Of a DNA stretch of 64,000 nucleotides, positions 55,693 to 64,000 are shown piece after piece (positions within the stretch are counted from its first letter, which is position 1; every line of letters begins with the position of its first letter). The notes below the pieces were generated by a model. It saw only the letters and a program-made list of their open reading frames with translations. It was not told where the DNA came from and ran no database searches. The stretch lies in IMG/VR virus record IMGVR_UViG_3300017991_000052; one strand, given 5' to 3'. A program made the position numbers and the translations under genes. Source of the stretch: a virus.

Positions 55693-56426
55693 GAATATAT
55701 AAAAGAACTAAAGAACATTGTAAAAACATTTCTGAAGCTAAAAAAGGCTACATTGTTACTAAAAAAACTAAGTCATTAATTAGTAAAGCAAATATAGGAA
55801 AAAAACGCACAAAAAAACAAATAGAAAATATGAGCAAGAGTCGTAAAAAATATTTTCAAATTCACGATGCTCCAATGAAAGGTAAAAAATTCACAAAAGA
55901 TCATATAGAAAAATTACGACAAGCAAAATTAGGAACAAAACATTCAAAGAAAACAAAATTAAAGATGAGTAAATCTCGAAAAGGAAGAAAAATAATATTT
56001 TCGAAAAAAGCAAAAGAAAATATGAGTTTAGGTGCTATAAAAAGATTAATGAATGGAAAAGATAATTATGCGAGGGGGAAAAGAGGATATTTTTATTCAA
56101 AGAAGAATTGTAAAAAGGTATATTATCGATCATCATGGGAATTACAGGCATACAAAATATTGGAATTAATGAAAGAAGTAAAGAATTATTTTATAGAACC
56201 ACTTAGAATCCCTTATCTATTTAATGGAACTATTCACAATTATCTTCCAGATATACTAATAAAATATAAAAATGGAATAAAAGAATTAATAGAAATAAAA
56301 CCTAAATTTAAATTGCAAGATAAAAAAACAATATATAAGTTAAATGCTGGTATGCAATATGCATTGGCAAATAATATAAAATTTAATATTTGGGATAATG
56401 ATTACTTATTAAAAGACGAAAACTAA
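55683..56426 (+). mobile_element. Homing endonuclease: NUMOD3 repeats plus TnsA-like PD-(D/E)XK domain
   Basis: GKKRTK, GKKFTKDH and GTKHSKKTK repeats; YRSSWE, EP..IPY, YLPDILI, LIEIKP. Confidence 0.8.
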
Positions 56427-56443
56427 TTTAAAAGGGGGGCGCC

Positions 56444-57685
56444 ATGAAAGCCGAATATTCTCTACTTAATGCAATATTAACACAAAATAGAATTGCTTTT
56501 GTTATTAAAAAATTAAAGCCATATCATTTTGGGGATGATTATGCTCGTGAAGTTTATAAGTTCTTTTGTAAATTTTTTAAAGAATATCATAAGACACCAA
56601 GCTCCAGTATTACAAGACAAAAATTCAGAGAATATGATTATCAAGAAGAAAATGGAGATATTAATTATTTAGTAAATGAAGTGATGAATAAATATAGTGA
56701 ATATAAATTATTAGGTATTTTAAATGATGCAGCAAATAAATTAAAAGAAAATTCAAGTGAAGAAGTTCTTAATTATGTAATAAGTAATGGATTGAAATTA
56801 AGATCAGAATCTCAAAAAGAAGAGGATCTTGATTTGCTTAATATTACTGATGAAATAATAAAAGATTATCAAGTTAGAAAAGAAAGAGGAGCAATTTCAG
56901 GCATTCCATCTGGAATTCCGAGTTTAGATAATTTAATATGTGGATGGCAAAATGGAGAATTAATTAATATAATGGCTGGTACAGGAATTGGCAAATCATT
57001 TTTAGCAACTCATTTTGCAACTCATGCATGGAGAAATGGATATAAACCATTATATATTTCTTTTGAAATGTCTCCTAAACAAATTTATACTCGAGTATTA
57101 GCATTACAATTAAATTTAAATCCTAGAGATATTAAACATGGACAATTAACTGAAGAGAATGAACAAAGATTAAAAGAATATTTAAATAATTTAAAAAATG
57201 CTACAGATGGAAGAACAAGTTTTATTGTATCTTCACCACATAATGCAACACAATCTTCAGTATTAGCTGCAATTAATAACCATAATCCAGATATTGTTTT
57301 TGTAGATTATATTACTTTAATGAAAGATGAAAATGGAGATAAAAGCTGGGAAGCTGTAAAAAATATTTCAAGAGATTTGAAGAATTTTGCTCGTAAATGT
57401 AATATTCCTGTTATTTCATTATGTCAAGCGAATAGAGAATTTGATGTTGGCGGAAGTGAACCGCCGGAATTAGATAATGTTGGGTATTCTAGAGCAATAG
57501 CTCAAGATTCAGATATAATTATTTCTATACATCAAAACAATGATCAAAGAAATGATGGGGTAATGAAAGCAAAAGTTGTAAAAATGAGAGATGGTGAAGT
57601 TGGATTACTTATTGATTTAATGTGGTATCTTAATGATGGTATTATTAGGGAAAATATACATGACTTTGGATATAGACCTGCTTGA
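56444..57685 (+). CDS. dnaB: DnaB-like replicative helicase
   Basis: GIPSG...LD, AGTGIGKS, SFEMS, VDYITLM, LCQANR, IAQDSD, KMRDG. Confidence 0.92.
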   Translation: MKAEYSLLNAILTQNRIAFVIKKLKPYHFGDDYAREVYKFFCKFFKEYHKTPSSSITRQKFREYDYQEENGDINYLVNEVMNKYSEYKLLGILNDAANKLKENSSEEVLNYVISNGLKLRSESQKEEDLDLLNITDEIIKDYQVRKERGAISGIPSGIPSLDNLICGWQNGELINIMAGTGIGKSFLATHFATHAWRNGYKPLYISFEMSPKQIYTRVLALQLNLNPRDIKHGQLTEENEQRLKEYLNNLKNATDGRTSFIVSSPHNATQSSVLAAINNHNPDIVFVDYITLMKDENGDKSWEAVKNISRDLKNFARKCNIPVISLCQANREFDVGGSEPPELDNVGYSRAIAQDSDIIISIHQNNDQRNDGVMKAKVVKMRDGEVGLLIDLMWYLNDGIIRENIHDFGYRPA

Positions 57686-58580
57686 ATTATTAACATCATA
57701 TGGAATAGATAATATCAAACTAAAAGGACATTATATACAATTATCCTGTCCTTTTCATGATGATAATAATCCTTCAGCAGCTTTTTATTTAGACAACCAA
57801 AGATTCGTATGTTTTGGATGTAGAACAAGCGTTAATATATATGAATTTATTGCTTTATTAGAAGATATTCCGGTTAGTGAAGTAAAATCTAGATATAGAG
57901 TAGAATTAAGTAAAGATATTATAATAAATAAATTAAGAACTAAGATTAATGATTTTTATAATAAAGAATCAGAAAGATCTGTAACAAAAGTATATGATGA
58001 AAGTATATTAAATAATTTTACATCTGAATATGATTATATGTTTAATAGAGGATTTAATATTGAGACATTAAAAAAATTTGAAGTTGGATATTATGCTGCT
58101 AAAAGTATGGTGTCATTACCATTTCGAGATAGGCATGGAAATTTAATTGGAGTATATGGGAGAAAAACATACCCAACTAGTAGAGCAAAATATAAACCAA
58201 TAGTTCCAATAGATTCTGGATATCCAAAGTATGATCATTTATATGGATTACATCTTGTTAGGGGAGATACATTAATGTTAGTTGAAGGGAATCTTGTTGT
58301 ATTAAAAACACATCAAGAAGGATTTCCATTTTCTGCAGCAATACAAAGTACTAATTTAACATTGCCTCATGAAAAATTGGTATCTAAATATTTTGATAAT
58401 GTTATTTTAGCTTTAGATAATGATGAACCAGGGAAAGAAGCGAGTAAAGATATATATAATAGATTAAAGAATAAAGTTAAAATATCAATTTTTAATTATG
58501 ATGCAGCTGGAAAACACGATATTGATGATATGAATAGTGATGAAATAGGAAAAGGAATAGGAGAAGCAAAATTATTATGA
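57660..58580 (+). CDS. dnaG: DNA primase (CHC2 zinc finger plus TOPRIM)
   Basis: CPFHDDNNPS...CFGC, GVYGR, LYGL, LVEG, LDNDEPG. Confidence 0.9.
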   Translation: MTLDIDLLELLTSYGIDNIKLKGHYIQLSCPFHDDNNPSAAFYLDNQRFVCFGCRTSVNIYEFIALLEDIPVSEVKSRYRVELSKDIIINKLRTKINDFYNKESERSVTKVYDESILNNFTSEYDYMFNRGFNIETLKKFEVGYYAAKSMVSLPFRDRHGNLIGVYGRKTYPTSRAKYKPIVPIDSGYPKYDHLYGLHLVRGDTLMLVEGNLVVLKTHQEGFPFSAAIQSTNLTLPHEKLVSKYFDNVILALDNDEPGKEASKDIYNRLKNKVKISIFNYDAAGKHDIDDMNSDEIGKGIGEAKLL

Positions 58581-59392
58581 AAAATATATTACTTATTGAT
58601 GCCTATCATTTAGCACATCGAGCATATTCAAAATTTTATAATCTTAAATTAGATGAGGATACATCAGTTGGATTAATTTATGGAGTTATTAATATATTGC
58701 TTTCATACAAAAAACGCTTTCATCCTTGTGATATTGTTATGTGTTATGATACTGGACATAGTAGAAGAAGTAAAATTTGTTCAGATTATAAAGCGAATCG
58801 AACAGATACTCATAATGGATTTTTTCAACAACTTTTTATTTTAAAATGTTTATTAAAAGATATAGGGATTAAATGTGCAGAATTACCAGATACAGAGGCG
58901 GATGATATAATTGGAAGTTTGTCGATAAAAAATAAAGATGGACTTAATATAATAGTAAGTGGTGATCATGATTACTTTCAATTAATTAATGATAATACAG
59001 CATTTTTTAAAGTTGGGAAGAATGATAAATTATATGATAAAAAAACTTTTATTGATGAATTTGGTATTTCTCCAGATCGTTATGTCGAAACAATGTATAT
59101 TTCCGGAGATAAAAGTGATAATGTGCATGGAATTGCCGGAATTGGAGATAAGAAAGCACTTACTATTGTAAAATCAACAGATAATTTTGATGAAGTTCTA
59201 AAACATGAGAAAGTGAAAGATTTTATTGATATTGTGAATATTAATCGTCAAGTTCTTACTATTAATAAGTCTCTCGATGTAAAGATACAAACACCAGAAA
59301 AGCATTTAGATATTGTAAAACATTTATTCGACAATTATCTTAAATTCAAATCATTTTTAAAAAGATGGGAGGAAATAGAAAATTTTTCATAG
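58577..59392 (+). CDS. 5'-3' exonuclease / flap endonuclease (PolI N-domain/RNase H-like)
   Basis: LLIDA, YKANR, EADDII, SGDHDYFQL, GDKSDNVHGIAGIGDKKA. Confidence 0.92.
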   Translation: MKNILLIDAYHLAHRAYSKFYNLKLDEDTSVGLIYGVINILLSYKKRFHPCDIVMCYDTGHSRRSKICSDYKANRTDTHNGFFQQLFILKCLLKDIGIKCAELPDTEADDIIGSLSIKNKDGLNIIVSGDHDYFQLINDNTAFFKVGKNDKLYDKKTFIDEFGISPDRYVETMYISGDKSDNVHGIAGIGDKKALTIVKSTDNFDEVLKHEKVKDFIDIVNINRQVLTINKSLDVKIQTPEKHLDIVKHLFDNYLKFKSFLKRWEEIENFS

Positions 59393-59421
59393 TTTACAAA
59401 CTAAGATGTTCATGTTATAAT
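59393..59421 (+). promoter_or_regulatory. Promoter, class II
   Basis: TTTACA-17 nt ending TGT-TATAAT. Confidence 0.75.
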
Positions 59422-59452
59422 GTCATCTCATTTTACTACAAAGGGGGTCCGC

Positions 59453-60130
59453 ATGAAGGGTTTATTAAGATACAAAACAATAAAGAATCAGGGAACAAGT
59501 AATGCACTTCAAATCAAGGATGGTGAGACTAAACAAATAAGGTTTTTAGAGGATGGAGCAGAAATTCATTTTGTAAGAAGACATTGGGTTGATTTAAATG
59601 GATTTAAAGGATTTGTTAATTGTTTAAATAATCCAGATGGGGGGGTTGTTGATGAATGTCCCCTTTGTGATCGTGCCAGTACAAATTGGGGATCGCCAAT
59701 TTCTACAGCTCAGATCAGAATGTTAACGAAAGTTATTGATAGAGCTGATGGGAAAGCAAAATTATTTGAAGCAACACATTCAGTTATTGATAAATTAGCA
59801 AAAGATTATGATGCTAATAAGACAATTACTGATGTTGATTATTCTTATTCTAGAAGTATTGAAATAAAAGGTAAACGCAAAAGAACAAGATATGATCTTG
59901 ATGCTTTAAGAAATACTGCTAGTCCTTTGTCTGATGATGATAAAAAGAAAGGGTTAGAAGTAGATGTTGATGGAGAAATCAAAAGAACAGGTAAAAGCAA
60001 AGAAGAAATAATTGACATTATAAATAAAATTCAAATAAGTAAAAATCCACAAGAAAATAATTCATCACCACAAGGGGGATCAGAATCTCAAGGAGTTAAA
60101 GAAGAAAAGACAAAATCTTTTCCTATATAA
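59453..60130 (+). CDS. Single-stranded DNA-binding protein (gp32-like)
   Basis: IRFL, HWV...C...CPLC zinc motif, low-complexity tail ending in FPI; replication context. Confidence 0.7.
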   Translation: MKGLLRYKTIKNQGTSNALQIKDGETKQIRFLEDGAEIHFVRRHWVDLNGFKGFVNCLNNPDGGVVDECPLCDRASTNWGSPISTAQIRMLTKVIDRADGKAKLFEATHSVIDKLAKDYDANKTITDVDYSYSRSIEIKGKRKRTRYDLDALRNTASPLSDDDKKKGLEVDVDGEIKRTGKSKEEIIDIINKIQISKNPQENNSSPQGGSESQGVKEEKTKSFPI

Positions 60131-60157
60131 ATATCTATTTGGGAAAGGGGGTGTGAC

Positions 60158-60364
60158 ATGACAACAAGTGTAACTGAATTTGTAAAATCTCAGCTGCATA
60201 GCGGCAATAGGGATGCTGAGGCTGTTTTTGATTTAGTTAATAAAGAAATCCAAAGTGGAAATGTGAGAAAGATGCGCGGTGATGGGGATCTTAAGAGCTA
60301 CATCAATTACATGATTAGGCCGATGAGAAAGAAAGCAGAACAGAGTGAGGGGACTGATGAGTAA
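60158..60364 (+). CDS. Small hypothetical protein
   Basis: G-rich RBS; overlaps the next gene. Confidence 0.55.
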   Translation: MTTSVTEFVKSQLHSGNRDAEAVFDLVNKEIQSGNVRKMRGDGDLKSYINYMIRPMRKKAEQSEGTDE

Positions 60365-61556
60365 AATAGCAGTAATTGGATTGGGGCGTGTTGGTTTACC
60401 ACTAGCTTTATTATTATCTTCAGAAGGACATGAAATAATGGGCATTGATAGGGATGGGAAAATTGTATCCTCTCTTATGCACAGACATATGCCTTTTGAT
60501 GAACCCCAATGCAAGGAATTGCTAAGTTCTTCGACCGCCGTCTTTAGTGATGATATTTCATTAGCGAGTTTTTGTGATACTATTATTATCACTGTTGGCA
60601 CTCCATTTTTGCCGCACATCGAAATGGATTTAAATCATTTAAGGACGGCCATCGAATCTATTATCCCATCATTAGAAAAAGGAAAGTTGGTGATCTTAAG
60701 AAGCACAATAGCTCCAAATACAACTAAATTTGTTAAAAATTTAATTGAAAAACATTCTGGATATATAGTTGGAAAAGATATATTTTTAGCATTTTGTCCA
60801 GAAAGACTTGCTGAAGGTGTTGCTATAGAAGAATTACAAACTTTACCTCAAATTATCGGAACAGAAGATGAAAAGAGCAAAGAATTAGCATATGAGATAT
60901 TTAAATTTACTGAATGCATTCCTACAGATTATATAACAGCAGAATTAATAAAATTATTTACTAATATTTTTAGATATATACAATTCTCGATTCCAAATTA
61001 TTTTATGTATATTGCAGAAAATTATAATGCTAATATATTTAAAATTATAGAACTTATTAATTATCGATATCCACGCGGTGGACTTAAAAGACCAGGATTT
61101 GTTGCTGGGACTTGTTTAAGAAAAGATTTTGCTCCAATTTCTATGGATAGTTTTGGTGTAGATTTAGGAATGTTGTCATGGAAGATTAATGAATATTCTC
61201 CTTTGTTCTTAATTAAAGCAATTAAAAAATATACTACATTAACTAATAAAGAAATACTTGTATGTGGATATTCATTTAAAGCAAATACTGATGATATTAG
61301 AGATTCATTATCTGAAAAATTTGTTAGATTATTAAAAAATGAAGTACCAAAAAACTTATCAATATATGATCCATATGTAGAGGGATATAAAACTTATCTT
61401 AATATAGATTATGATATTATTTTTATAACAACTTGTCATGATCAATTTAATAAAGAATATTTTAAAAATCTTGGCGTTGATGATAATACATATATTGTAG
61501 ATATATGGAATGTTTGTAAAACTAATAAATTAATTTTTAAGAAAGGGGAAATATAA
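60357..61556 (+). CDS. UDP-glucose/GDP-mannose (WecC-like) nucleotide-sugar dehydrogenase
   Basis: GLGRVG Rossmann motif, VGTP, LRSTIAP, CPERLAEG, AELIKL..N, GTCLRKD, FKANTDDIRDS. Confidence 0.92.
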   Translation: MSKIAVIGLGRVGLPLALLLSSEGHEIMGIDRDGKIVSSLMHRHMPFDEPQCKELLSSSTAVFSDDISLASFCDTIIITVGTPFLPHIEMDLNHLRTAIESIIPSLEKGKLVILRSTIAPNTTKFVKNLIEKHSGYIVGKDIFLAFCPERLAEGVAIEELQTLPQIIGTEDEKSKELAYEIFKFTECIPTDYITAELIKLFTNIFRYIQFSIPNYFMYIAENYNANIFKIIELINYRYPRGGLKRPGFVAGTCLRKDFAPISMDSFGVDLGMLSWKINEYSPLFLIKAIKKYTTLTNKEILVCGYSFKANTDDIRDSLSEKFVRLLKNEVPKNLSIYDPYVEGYKTYLNIDYDIIFITTCHDQFNKEYFKNLGVDDNTYIVDIWNVCKTNKLIFKKGEI

Positions 61557-62575
61557 TGAAAGTATTAGTTACTGGATCAGAAGGGTTTATTGGAGGATAT
61601 ATAGTAGATAAATTATTAAAAGAAGGTCATCAAGTAAGAGGATTAGATAATTATAGTAAGTATGGTAAAGTTGTTCGTTCATTTCATGATAATTATAATT
61701 ATACATTTGTTGAAGGCGATGCAAAAGACTATAATAAAGTAGTAGAAATTTTAGAAGGGTGTGATCATTTTATAGCAAATGCCGCATTGATTGGCGGAAT
61801 ATCAATGTTCCATGAATTTGCATATGATCTTTTAGAAGAGAATGAAAGAATACTAGCTGCTGGATTTAGAGCCGCAATCAATGAACATCTTCATGGAAAA
61901 TTAAAGAAAATAACAGTAATGTCTTCTAGTATGGTATTTGAAAGTACAGCTACATACCCCACACCCGAGGGGGAGCAATTTAAATGCCCCCCTCCTTTAT
62001 CTACATATGGCTTTCAAAAGTTAGCTACTGAATATTGGGCTAAAGGGGCATGGGAACAACATAAATTACCATATACTATAATAAGACCATTTAATTGTAT
62101 TGGTATAGGAGAGACTCGTGCGGTATGTGATAAAGATATTATGTCAGGTAACATAAAGCTCGCCATGAGTCACGTGGTGCCTGATTTGATACAAAAAATA
62201 GTTAAAGGGCAAGATCCATTGCATATTTTAGGTAATGGTGAACAAATAAGACATTATACACATGGTAAAGATATAGCTAGAGGAATATATATGTCATTAG
62301 AAAATGAGAATGCAATTAATAATGATTTTAATATTTCAAATGATGTTTCAACAACTGTATTGGAATTATCAAAAATGATATGGGAAAAAATAAAAGGAGA
62401 TAAACCATTTTCATATATTCCAGACGATCCATTTAAATATGATGTACAAAAGAGAATACCAAATGTTAATAAAGCAAAAGAATTGCTTGGATTTGAAGCA
62501 GAAGTTTCATTAAATGATGCTCTTGATGAAGTCATTCCATGGGTAAAAGAGGAAATTGAAAAAGGGGTATTGTAA
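61556..62575 (+). CDS. NAD-dependent nucleotide-sugar epimerase/dehydratase (extended SDR)
   Basis: VTGSEGFIG, SSS, YGFQK, RPFN. Confidence 0.92.
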   Translation: MKVLVTGSEGFIGGYIVDKLLKEGHQVRGLDNYSKYGKVVRSFHDNYNYTFVEGDAKDYNKVVEILEGCDHFIANAALIGGISMFHEFAYDLLEENERILAAGFRAAINEHLHGKLKKITVMSSSMVFESTATYPTPEGEQFKCPPPLSTYGFQKLATEYWAKGAWEQHKLPYTIIRPFNCIGIGETRAVCDKDIMSGNIKLAMSHVVPDLIQKIVKGQDPLHILGNGEQIRHYTHGKDIARGIYMSLENENAINNDFNISNDVSTTVLELSKMIWEKIKGDKPFSYIPDDPFKYDVQKRIPNVNKAKELLGFEAEVSLNDALDEVIPWVKEEIEKGVL

Positions 62576-63747
62576 TGAAGAAAATATTGTATATACTTCA
62601 ACAGTCGATCTATAACAAAAATGAGAAATGGTTAACTGCAGATTCAAATATTCAGATGATGAGAGGGCTATTAAAAGAAATTCATCACGATTTTAAATGG
62701 GATATTTTAATAGCTCCGATTAAAGATTTTGCTGATATAAAATCTTATAAAGAAATATTTAATTCTCCAAATGTAAAATTTATTCCATGGAAAAGACCAA
62801 TATCTGCTTTTGATAATCGCTATCATTTTGATACAGTTGAATTTAAAAAGATCATAGAAAAGGGTAAATATGATATTGTATGGAGCAATATTTCTGAATT
62901 GACAAGAAATATTAAAACTGTTTTAACATATGCAAAATCACAAGCTAAAATAATTCATGCTTGTTATTGGATGGATTGCCCATGTATTGGGGAAGAAAAA
63001 GTATCTAAAACTATTTCATATGATTGGAGGCAATTTGATGGAGCTGAATGCGCTGATGTGGTTGCTTTTACATGCGGATCAACTAAGCAAGCTTTTTTTG
63101 ATAATGCTAAACGAAAATTTAATAAGAAATATATTAATAATATAAAGAAAAAATCTATTATTTTTGATTTTGGATTTTCATTAAGAGAAATATTAGATAA
63201 TTATAATCCAGAAAAATTTAATAAAGCAACTATTGTATTTGGTAATAGATTAAGTGAAATAAATTATACTCATCATGAAGAAGTAATTGAAGCAGTTAAT
63301 AAGCTTTATAAAAGAAGAAAAGATTTTCAAATAATATTTACTAATCCATCACAAAAAGTAAAATGGAGCGACTTAAAAAAGAAAGTAAAACCTTTATTTG
63401 TATATTCAGAAAAACCATTAAATAGAAAAGAATATTTTGATATGCTAACGAGATCAGATATTAGTGTTAGTTTATATTTTATTGAAAGATATGGTGGATG
63501 TTTTAGTAGAGAAGCAATAGGAGCTGGGTTATTGCCAGTAGTTCCAAAAGTTTATGAATACAAAAGAATATTAGGTAATAGATATCCATTTTATACAAAA
63601 TTAAATAATTTAGAACGAGTATTAGAAAAAGCAATTATTGCTATAAAAGATGGGTATAAAGTAAAAGGGGAAATACGAAAGAGGAATGCTGAATCTTCTT
63701 TTGAGGAAGTTGGTGAAGTAGTAAAACAATGTCTATTGAAACTTTAG
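62575..63747 (+). CDS. GT-B fold glycosyltransferase
   Basis: IVFGNRL and C-terminal ERYGGCFSREAIGAG..PVVP (EX7E-like) nucleotide-sugar motif. Confidence 0.75.
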   Translation: MKKILYILQQSIYNKNEKWLTADSNIQMMRGLLKEIHHDFKWDILIAPIKDFADIKSYKEIFNSPNVKFIPWKRPISAFDNRYHFDTVEFKKIIEKGKYDIVWSNISELTRNIKTVLTYAKSQAKIIHACYWMDCPCIGEEKVSKTISYDWRQFDGAECADVVAFTCGSTKQAFFDNAKRKFNKKYINNIKKKSIIFDFGFSLREILDNYNPEKFNKATIVFGNRLSEINYTHHEEVIEAVNKLYKRRKDFQIIFTNPSQKVKWSDLKKKVKPLFVYSEKPLNRKEYFDMLTRSDISVSLYFIERYGGCFSREAIGAGLLPVVPKVYEYKRILGNRYPFYTKLNNLERVLEKAIIAIKDGYKVKGEIRKRNAESSFEEVGEVVKQCLLKL

Positions 63748-64000
63748 AACAAGATATTTACAATTGCAATAAATGTAAAGAAATGGTTGAAGCTAGATTG
63801 TATCCTATGCCAAATCTTCGTATTGGGGATAAAATACAAAGATCATTTATGTTTATTGGAGAAAATCCAGGCGCACCACTTCCAAATGAGAGAGAAATAA
63901 TAAAATCACATAATGATTTTAAAAAAAGTTATGAACAAACATTTCAAATGTGTAAAATGGGGAAATTTATTAAATATATACTTGATGATCTTGGGTATGG
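63729..64000 (+). CDS. Uracil-DNA glycosylase family 4/5-like protein, 3'-partial
   Basis: MSIETLEQDIYNCNKC...FMFIGENPG: Fe-S CxxC plus the UDG motif; runs off the window. Confidence 0.7.
   Translation, partial: MSIETLEQDIYNCNKCKEMVEARLYPMPNLRIGDKIQRSFMFIGENPGAPLPNEREIIKSHNDFKKSYEQTFQMCKMGKFIKYILDDLGY

Follow-up and report, generated by a model that had tools for sequence, protein, structure and literature searches.

A predicted cytosine-hypermodification cassette with sugar-donor genes in the replication operon of a metagenomic phage

Genes of the locus

We analysed a 64,000-nucleotide (nt) window, bases 44592-108591 of one linear 152,375-bp IMG/VR virus record (IMGVR_UViG_3300017991_000052; CheckV completeness 85%), together with the 20 kb that come next on this contig (L001, whose coordinates plus 59408 give those of the window). 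At the end of the window, genes for a nucleotide-sugar 6-dehydrogenase, an extended short-chain dehydrogenase/reductase (SDR), a glycosyltransferase (GT) and a protein of the uracil-DNA glycosylase (UDG) fold follow the replication genes, and this region probably forms the upstream half of a cassette for cytosine hypermodification that is integrated in the replication operon. The genes that the argument needs are as follows, four in the window and six past its end:

60357..61556, + strand: nucleoside diphosphate (NDP)-sugar 6-dehydrogenase, resembling dehydrogenases of UDP-N-acetylmannosamine (UDP-ManNAc) and other UDP-N-acetylhexosamines (UDP-HexNAc); three UDPG_MGDP_dh Pfam domains, TIGR03026
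61556..62575, + strand: extended SDR acting on a nucleotide sugar, nearest to 4-epimerases (Epimerase family, 3e-37)
62575..63747, + strand: GT-B glycosyltransferase of GT4-like retaining type, 390 amino acids (aa), a predicted DNA 5-hydroxymethylcytosine (5hmC) glycosyltransferase (AlphaFold2 model, fold matches)
63729..64000, + strand: predicted Fe-S UDG-fold DNA glycosylase, 197 aa, first 90 codons in the window and end at the equivalent of 64322 (L001:4321-4914)
L001:4911-5435, past the window end: Tmk-like P-loop kinase
L001:5422-5850, past the window end: trimeric dUTPase
L001:5847-6629, past the window end: thymidylate-synthase (TS) homologue
L001:6619-7062, past the window end: dCMP deaminase
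Between the dCMP deaminase and DnaE genes in L001: open reading frame (ORF) of 198 aa
L001:7648-11046, past the window end: DnaE-type polymerase

Every gene between 55.6 and 64 kb lies on the + strand, in the order DnaB helicase, DnaG-type primase, 5'-3' exonuclease, a 60-bp gap, a gene resembling those of single-stranded DNA-binding proteins (SSB-like), a 68-aa ORF, dehydrogenase, SDR, GT and UDG. The dehydrogenase and SDR genes overlap by 1 base, as do the SDR and GT genes, and the GT and UDG genes overlap by 19 bases; the four-gene set is translationally coupled. A preliminary description of the window had reported these four genes as coupled or overlapping and placed after SSB, and the family matches, motifs, fold and overlaps agree with it. 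It had also pointed downstream for a deoxynucleotide hydroxymethylase or a kinase, and candidates for both lie directly after the UDG gene: with overlapping codons, the gene run continues through the kinase, dUTPase, TS homologue and dCMP deaminase, and then reaches the 198-aa ORF and DnaE.

The predicted modified base and its glycosyltransferase

The TS homologue (Pfam PF00303, 2.6e-19) has T4 dCMP hydroxymethylase (1b49, 1.9e-25) as its top solved match in a PDB sequence search, followed by the CMP hydroxymethylase MilA (5e-14) and by true thymidylate synthases (about 1e-10 or weaker), and it scores far under the cut-offs of the NCBIfam ThyA models. In the alignment to the T4 enzyme, DFVCT stands against DFMCT with the catalytic Cys146 aligned, and the RSSDCIRGITFD region reads R-S-S-D-C-I-R-G-I-T-F-D against R-S-N-D-V-V-F-G-F-R-N-D in T4. 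The residues at the specificity positions, in ThyA numbering, are D143 (for Leu143), C146, D169 and D177 (for Asn177). The change N177D leads to cytosine specificity, L143D/E, which bears on the access of water, is associated with a product other than methyl, and D169N is the mark of 5-hydroxy-dCMP synthases, flavin-dependent enzymes of RB69, DLP3 and others (PMC13326640). The TS homologue does not carry that Asn: it reads RSSD where RB69 gp48 (GenBank record) reads RSQN. Because D169 is kept where RB69 gp48 has N, the enzyme appears to be of the 5-hydroxymethyl type, with 5-hydroxymethyl-dCMP as its predicted product. The same signature recurs in the TS homologues beside this GT family, in which C146, D169 and D177 are kept in 14/14 and D/E143 in 13/14; with two distant homologues included, all 16 examined keep D169, and the distant pair likewise keeps D177. 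The gene is the sole TS-family member in the record, and no ThyX was found in these 85% of the genome.

We consider it very unlikely that the TS homologue instead makes another C5-substituted dCMP, for example the 5-hydroxy-dCMP of RB69 and DLP3, with the GT attaching its sugar through an ether link. The trio of kinase, GT and TS homologue, seen in RB69, DLP3 and RL38J1, is indeed the arrangement of the published 5-hydroxycytosine (5hoC) systems (PMC13326640); the kinase is homologous to RB69 gp45 (29% identity, 2e-6), and a distant member of the GT family (L032) has a peptidase-U32 gene at the place of the TS homologue. However, D169 is present in every homologue examined whereas every tested 5hoC synthase has N, and the T4 hydroxymethylase is by far the top solved match.

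The GT belongs to a family that the annotation libraries miss. It has no match in Pfam, PHROG or NCBIfam, phmmer against PDB sequences returned nothing meaningful, and among 50,697 phage records neither blastn nor tblastn gave a match to the region or to the GT. Metagenomes hold 75 homologues at 38-78% identity, and a profile search found 525 among 1.8 billion cluster representatives, 291 of them at E <= 1e-10; Pfam Glycos_transf_1 matches just a few members of the family. An AlphaFold2 model built from a 40-sequence alignment (pLDDT 95.9, pTM 0.92) has the GT-B fold with two Rossmann-like domains. Foldseek placed MshA (3c4q, 3e-12) and BshA first, and VIA-align gave Z scores of 30.9 to sucrose-phosphate synthase 6kih (rmsd 3.1, 351 residues aligned), 30.5 to MshA 3c4q and 30.2 to BshA, all three of which are GT4 retaining enzymes that use UDP-sugars. 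The putative donor-binding motif near the C-terminus, E304-x8-E313 (GGC...EA.GAG.PVV), is one residue longer than the classic E-x7-E, and its E304, G307, G308 and E313 are invariant.

The same three structures are the best matches of the RB69 and DLP3 DNA arabinosyltransferases (PMC13326640), and a metagenomic 5hmC glycosyltransferase matches BshA and MshA (10.1101/2023.12.21.572611). Comparison of the GT with RB69 gp46 and gp47 by hhalign gave probabilities below 1%, and the model and sequences together point to a separate family with the same fold as gp46/47. An assignment of the GT to the T4 alpha- or beta-glucosyltransferases (AGT, family GT72, and BGT, family GT63) found no support: its fold is of the GT4-like retaining kind, and AGT and BGT are not among the listed Foldseek and VIA-align matches, although a distant relationship is still conceivable and the folds may not differ.

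With the proteins encoded by this phage we scored 14 distinct metagenomic phage contigs, all of which carry close members of the GT family, counting each gene only over contigs that reach far enough to be testable. The SDR (44-62% identity), the kinase and the TS homologue are each present in 13/13, the dehydrogenase in 11/13, upstream of the SDR, and the UDG-fold gene in 7/13 as well as in two distant cassettes. The genes usually run dehydrogenase, SDR, (UDG), (methyltransferase, in one lineage), kinase, GT, TS homologue, (dCMP deaminase), DnaE. In most relatives the GT gene is directly followed by the TS homologue, often with overlapping codons; in the present genome the GT has moved ahead of UDG and kinase. 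Three distant members of the GT family show a similar arrangement: GT, kinase and TS homologue in L033; kinase, UDG, GT, family B polymerase and TS homologue in L034; and dehydrogenase, SDR, UDG, GT, kinase, peptidase-U32 protein and dCMP deaminase in L032. Because of these, the GT family appears to be tied to the kinase and the TS homologue across phages with different replicases, and the dehydrogenase/SDR pair to be an addition in one large branch.

Some relatives differ in individual genes. The peptidase-U32 family protein of L032 (L032:4784-5884) stands where the TS homologue would be; the contig measures only 7 kb, and a TS gene may be situated outside it. Hydroxylation of pyrimidines at C5 in RNA is an activity of U32 proteins, TrhP and RlhA among them, and the L032 protein may offer an alternative way to a base oxygenated at C5. 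The arabinosylation cluster of RB69 likewise has a U32-like protein, gp50 (PMC13326640, Table 1). A 178-kb relative has a SAM-dependent methyltransferase (Methyltransf_23; L003:8837-9514) between UDG and kinase, of which tblastn found no homologue in the present genome. In some relatives a gene of the dUTPase_2 family immediately precedes that of the dehydrogenase, whereas this phage and several relatives, L004, L019 and L022 among them, have a trimeric dUTPase instead.

The predicted sugar donor

The dehydrogenase scores 264 bits with TIGR03026 (cut-off 190). It likely starts at ATG 60357, which is preceded by GAGGGG, and not at the listed GTG 60345, and it has the N-terminal GxGxxG (GLGRVG) and a catalytic-type Cys257 in GTCLRKD. 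The enzyme is not Ugd-like. The best PDB matches are 4r16 (1.9e-53) and Cap5O (1.1e-48), against 1e-28 or weaker for UDP-glucose dehydrogenases; the NCBIfam model of E. coli-type Ugd (PRK15057) gives 34 bits against a cut-off of 757 and TuaD/AglM give about 120 against 670-700, and the enzyme is closer to the UDP-ManNAc dehydrogenases, whose models give 143-198 bits. Because the genome encodes no UDP-N-acetylglucosamine (UDP-GlcNAc) 2-epimerase that would feed a ManNAc dehydrogenase, UDP-GlcNAc, present in every host, is an attractive candidate for the substrate.

The SDR has GxxGxxG, Y151xxxK155 and an intact Ser/Tyr/Lys triad. As the preliminary description had noticed, its motif is SSSMVFE and not of the STSEVY type. 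The Met stands where UDP-xylose synthase (UXS), ArnA and UAXS have their catalytic Glu, two residues past the catalytic Ser/Thr (TSEVYG), and 4,6-dehydratases an acid; the SDR thus lacks the Glu of UXS/ArnA-type decarboxylases, and its bacterial orthologues keep the Met. The top full-length solved relatives are the 4-epimerases 4zrm, 8rdg and 6dnt, none above about 100 bits, of which 8rdg is a GDP-sugar 4-epimerase (PMC12171764). NCBIfam models, PDB sequences and a separate query with the C-terminal half of the SDR take the assignment no further than the superfamily, and an Arg that aligns with R277 of UXS does not discriminate, being shared by extended SDRs.

These features bear on which sugar is made. 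A product of uronic type (hexuronic or HexNAc-uronic, probably 4-epimerised) is most likely on present evidence, and a decarboxylated pentose is possible but less likely. In the latter case the dehydrogenase would give a UDP-uronic acid and the SDR would decarboxylate it to a sugar of the xylose, arabinose or N-acetyl-xylosamine (XylNAc) type, an ending that we regard as unlikely. It draws on the match of the C-terminal half of the SDR to human UXS1 (8e-12), on weak NCBIfam matches to ArnA and to UDP-4-keto-pentose/UDP-xylose synthase, and on the readiness with which 4-keto-uronic acids lose CO2. Against it stand the Met in place of the catalytic Glu, the 4-epimerases as top full-length solved matches, and the fact that every NCBIfam match of the SDR falls far under its cut-off. 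The preliminary description had named uronic acids and pentoses as the products of dehydrogenase/SDR pairs; the two enzymes here do not resemble a Ugd/UXS pair, and the pentose is the less likely of the two.

Homologues of the SDR number thousands in bacteria (those with names include Calothrix, Margulisbacteria and Thermodesulfovibrionales), and of the best 120, each with an E-value of E-156 or better, nearly every one has a length of exactly 339 aa and an identity of 66-77%. In three bacterial loci (L023:6759-9020, L024:6814-9020 and L025:6808-9020), all polysaccharide clusters, a gene for a dehydrogenase of about 400 aa is directly followed by that of a 339-aa SDR (66-70% identical) that keeps SSSMVFE. 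Because bacterial SDR orthologues directly follow dehydrogenase genes in this way, we suggest that the phage lineage took over a cellular two-gene nucleotide-sugar unit. The bacterial pair has the same gene order, SDR length and motif as the phage pair but, unlike the phage cassette, lies among GT2 and methyltransferase genes for surface glycans. For it there is neither an NCBIfam equivalog nor a close solved structure, and a full-text literature search for the motif SSSMVFE returned no paper. In function the pair may resemble TviB/TviC, which convert UDP-GlcNAc to UDP-GlcNAcA and then to UDP-GalNAcA; the TviC model gives the SDR only 35 bits against a cut-off of 760. Topical full-text searches found no paper on a phage DNA-modification cluster with a nucleotide-sugar 6-dehydrogenase.

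The probable acceptor and the accessory genes

From gene identities, motifs, fold and synteny we infer a pathway that we think likely, in which 5hmC is made before replication and is then glycosylated on DNA from a phage-made donor. First, the TS homologue would convert dCMP to 5-hydroxymethyl-dCMP with methylene-tetrahydrofolate, the Tmk-like kinase and then host NDP kinase would carry this to the triphosphate, and the phage DnaE replisome would build 5-hydroxymethyl-dCTP into DNA, with dCMP deaminase and dUTPase balancing the pyrimidine pools. Second, the dehydrogenase would turn a UDP-hexose or UDP-HexNAc of the host into its uronic acid by oxidation at C6, and the SDR would remodel this product, most likely by 4-epimerisation. 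Third, the GT4-fold enzyme would attach the sugar to 5hmC of duplex DNA at its hydroxymethyl group, probably with retention (alpha linkage). The Fe-S UDG-fold protein would have an accessory role as a glycosylase, excising uracil-type bases (U, perhaps 5-hydroxymethyluracil, 5hmU) arising from the pyrimidine chemistry, and the outcome would be DNA resistant to restriction enzymes and other nucleases.

The genome holds other glycosyltransferases outside the window that bear on the acceptor:

C1:4705-5859 (L008), about 40 kb before the window start: second GT4 gene (Pfam Glycos_transf_1, 3.9e-11)
C1:122300-131600 (L001:18309-19672, L002:28-7094), 14-23 kb past the window end: 10-kb GT2 island with six GT2 (GT-A) genes

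The second GT4 is unrelated in sequence to the cassette GT, has a 62% identical homologue in relative G001 only, and lies near genes for a Volactin actin-like protein, a papain-family protease and a NUDIX hydrolase (C1:7333-7869). The GT2 island also encodes a SAM methyltransferase, a Fic-domain protein and a DUF2334 protein. Among the relatives, GT2 genes are clustered as three in G001 and number one or two in G003; G002 has none and keeps the cassette. These GT2 and GT4 enzymes could extend a glycan on DNA, the second GT4 by adding a second sugar, in the manner of the remote RB69 gp3, or serve an unrelated target.

We judge it quite unlikely that the dehydrogenase, SDR and GT glycosylate a non-DNA target, be it a virion protein, a surface polymer of the host or a small molecule, with the DNA carrying bare 5hmC at most, and that they sit in the replication operon merely for early expression. 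The bacterial polysaccharide origin of the pair, the GT2 island with its six GT2 genes and methyltransferase, the second GT4 gene, and the usual action of GT4 enzymes on small molecules or glycans all speak for such a target. Two observations speak against it. First, the GT gene lies between kinase and TS homologue, often with overlapping codons, in DnaE phages and in one PolB phage. Second, G002 (250 kb, 88% complete) keeps the cassette without the GT2 island or the second GT4, and has no other Pfam-detectable GT2 or GT4 gene; the sugar genes there have no visible client other than the cassette GT. The preliminary proposal that the phage makes its own donor and attaches the sugar to a DNA base is thus the best-supported reading, on the signature of the TS homologue, the conserved gene set and G002.

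Several points weigh against DNA glycosylation. Every member of the cassette is known from its gene alone; the GT is linked to proven DNA glycosyltransferases by fold and gene order alone, with no detectable sequence similarity; the D169 rule is an empirical signature from a single paper; the dehydrogenase/SDR pair comes from bacterial polysaccharide clusters; and the six GT2 genes and second GT4 of the same genome could also use the sugar. In addition, no dCTPase was found in the 85%-complete record, in which MazG and dUTPase_2 gave 0 matches and tblastn with the dUTPase_2 protein of L003 gave none. Because no dCTPase was found that would keep dCTP out, the replacement of cytosine may be partial. 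The NUDIX protein encoded at C1:7333-7869 could be a candidate for this activity.

The cassette would work like the T-even glucosyl-5hmC pathway, and its gene layout resembles the arabinosyl-5hoC clusters of RB69 and the Acinetobacter phage DLP3. The T-even system (gp42 hydroxymethylase, gp1 kinase, gp56 dCTPase, cd deaminase, alpha- and beta-glucosyltransferases) has the same dCMP hydroxymethylase active-site signature, and shares with the cassette a dCMP deaminase, a nucleotide kinase, a GT-B enzyme (predicted here to act after replication) and the anti-restriction logic. The cassette is set apart from it because GT family, kinase type, replicase and donor supply differ: the GT is GT4-like (AGT and BGT being absent from its listed structural matches), the kinase is Tmk-like and not gp1-like, the replicase is DnaE-based, no dCTPase was found, and the phage is predicted to make its own donor whereas T-even phages use host UDP-glucose.

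The RB69 and DLP3 clusters have the same adjacent trio of Tmk-like kinase, GT4-fold GT and TS homologue (PMC13326640), with homologous kinases, the same GT structural neighbours (3c4q/3c4v and 6kih) and phage-encoded synthesis of the sugar donor. The cassette differs from these because the base made and the donor pathway are not the same: position 169 is D in the TS homologue (5hmC type) and N in theirs (5hoC), and a 6-dehydrogenase and SDR take the place of arabinose-5-phosphate isomerase, kinase/uridylyltransferase and phosphatase. No sequence similarity to their GTs was detected.

A third group consists of metagenomic phage clusters with a methyltransferase, a TET-type dioxygenase, an epimerase and a GT, which place hexuronic acid and other sugars on 5hmC, and phage epimerase and GT pairs of this group have been shown experimentally to put a hexuronic acid on 5hmC in E. 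coli (10.1101/2023.12.21.572611). The GT there depends on a partner SDR epimerase, and the GT-B members of the group resemble BshA/MshA. In those clusters 5hmC is made on DNA by methyltransferase and dioxygenase, whereas here it is predicted to be made before replication by the TS homologue; the preprint mentions no nucleotide-sugar 6-dehydrogenase and uses the word dehydrogenase once, of a HAD enzyme, and here the phage would supply the oxidation step as well.

Sugar-decorated cytosines are among the strongest phage counters to restriction enzymes, CRISPR nucleases and type IV systems; with every further DNA sugar the set of effective defences shifts, and such systems have supplied DNA-labelling enzymes. 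What the present locus would add is a pre-replicative 5hmC route joined to phage-encoded oxidation and remodelling of the sugar donor, by which the phage need not depend on a host pool of that sugar. It also adds a large GT family (525 cluster representatives), annotated by no library and tied to TS homologues across replicases, and an Fe-S UDG-fold protein as a recurrent partner. Its enzymes are all small and soluble, and the cassette gives a handle on a very widespread, uncharacterised bacterial SDR family.

The UDG-like gene with CxxC and FIGENPG had been recognised in the preliminary description, and both motifs are found (C13xxC16; Pfam UDG 9.5e-19). The top solved match, aligned over the whole length, is the Sulfolobus family 4 UDG 4zbx (3.8e-17); the scores of the NCBIfam family 4 models lie under their cut-offs, and an insertion replaces the family 4 G-x-PF-x-G loop. 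Invariant in 10 phage homologues are the four Cys expected to bind a 4Fe-4S cluster (C13, C16, C103 and C119), H172-P173 (motif B) and the Asn of T-N-I-C-K-C. In motif A, which is GE(A/G)PG in family 4, the NPG is kept in the 10 phage homologues listed, and the Glu is variable (E, R, I or Q): GENPG here stands beside GRNPG, GINPG, QNPG and IAPG in relatives. The shared G-x-N-P-G occurs also in MUG/TDG (GINPG) and SMUG1 (GMNPG), in which the Asn is catalytic; these enzymes excise U, T:G, 5hmU and oxidised cytosines. Our reading of these motifs is that the protein may be an active glycosylase that clears uracil-type bases from DNA made with a rewired pyrimidine pool. It is accessory to the cassette and not essential, because half of the relatives lack the gene.

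We raise only tentatively the fuller possibility that the sugar is one unreported on DNA (of hexosaminuronic type or a remodelled uronic acid) and that the UDG-fold protein is a dedicated proof-reading glycosylase for U/5hmU or unmodified bases. Such a role, if true, would explain its recurrence beside the GT family in DnaE and PolB phages.

The UDG-fold protein had also been considered as the N-terminal domain of a SPO1-type polymerase. We reject this for the present genome: it is a separate 197-aa gene with its own stop codon. In two relatives the DnaE protein does have an N-terminal, degenerate UDG-like domain (GQAPS, no CxxC) with a weak intein signal (L004:14158-16461 and L019:14164-16467); this fused domain is different from the cassette UDG, and it is additional to a free-standing Fe-S UDG gene.

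Three further features lie upstream of the cassette genes:

59393..59421, + strand: promoter-like site in the gap after the 5'-3' exonuclease gene and before the SSB-like gene (TTTACA, 17 nt, extended -10 TG-TATAAT)
59454..60130, + strand: SSB-like gene of the replication module, context only (weak PHROG match, phrog_9721, 2.7e-4)
60158..60364, + strand: 68-aa ORF with an 8-base overlap with the dehydrogenase start

The preliminary description had put the genes under one promoter at 59393. The site there, before the SSB-like gene, is the top one within 56000-64000 (11/12 matches); promoter-like sites in that interval total 56 against 57.2 in shuffled sequence, that is, with no excess. Because this total is no higher than in shuffled sequence, a single promoter driving the whole gene run is plausible only. 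The 68-aa ORF and the 198-aa ORF before DnaE were dropped as parts of the cassette: neither has a family match (for the 68-aa ORF, in Pfam, PHROG and NCBIfam) or a homologue in any related locus. Genes for RecA, a resolvase-like protein and a PD-(D/E)XK nuclease follow DnaE in L001. The listed start of the SSB-like gene (ATG 59420) falls inside the -10 element of the promoter-like site, and the likely start is ATG 59454, after AAAGGGGG. Homologues of this gene at 38-44% identity occupy the same place in relatives L003 and L022.

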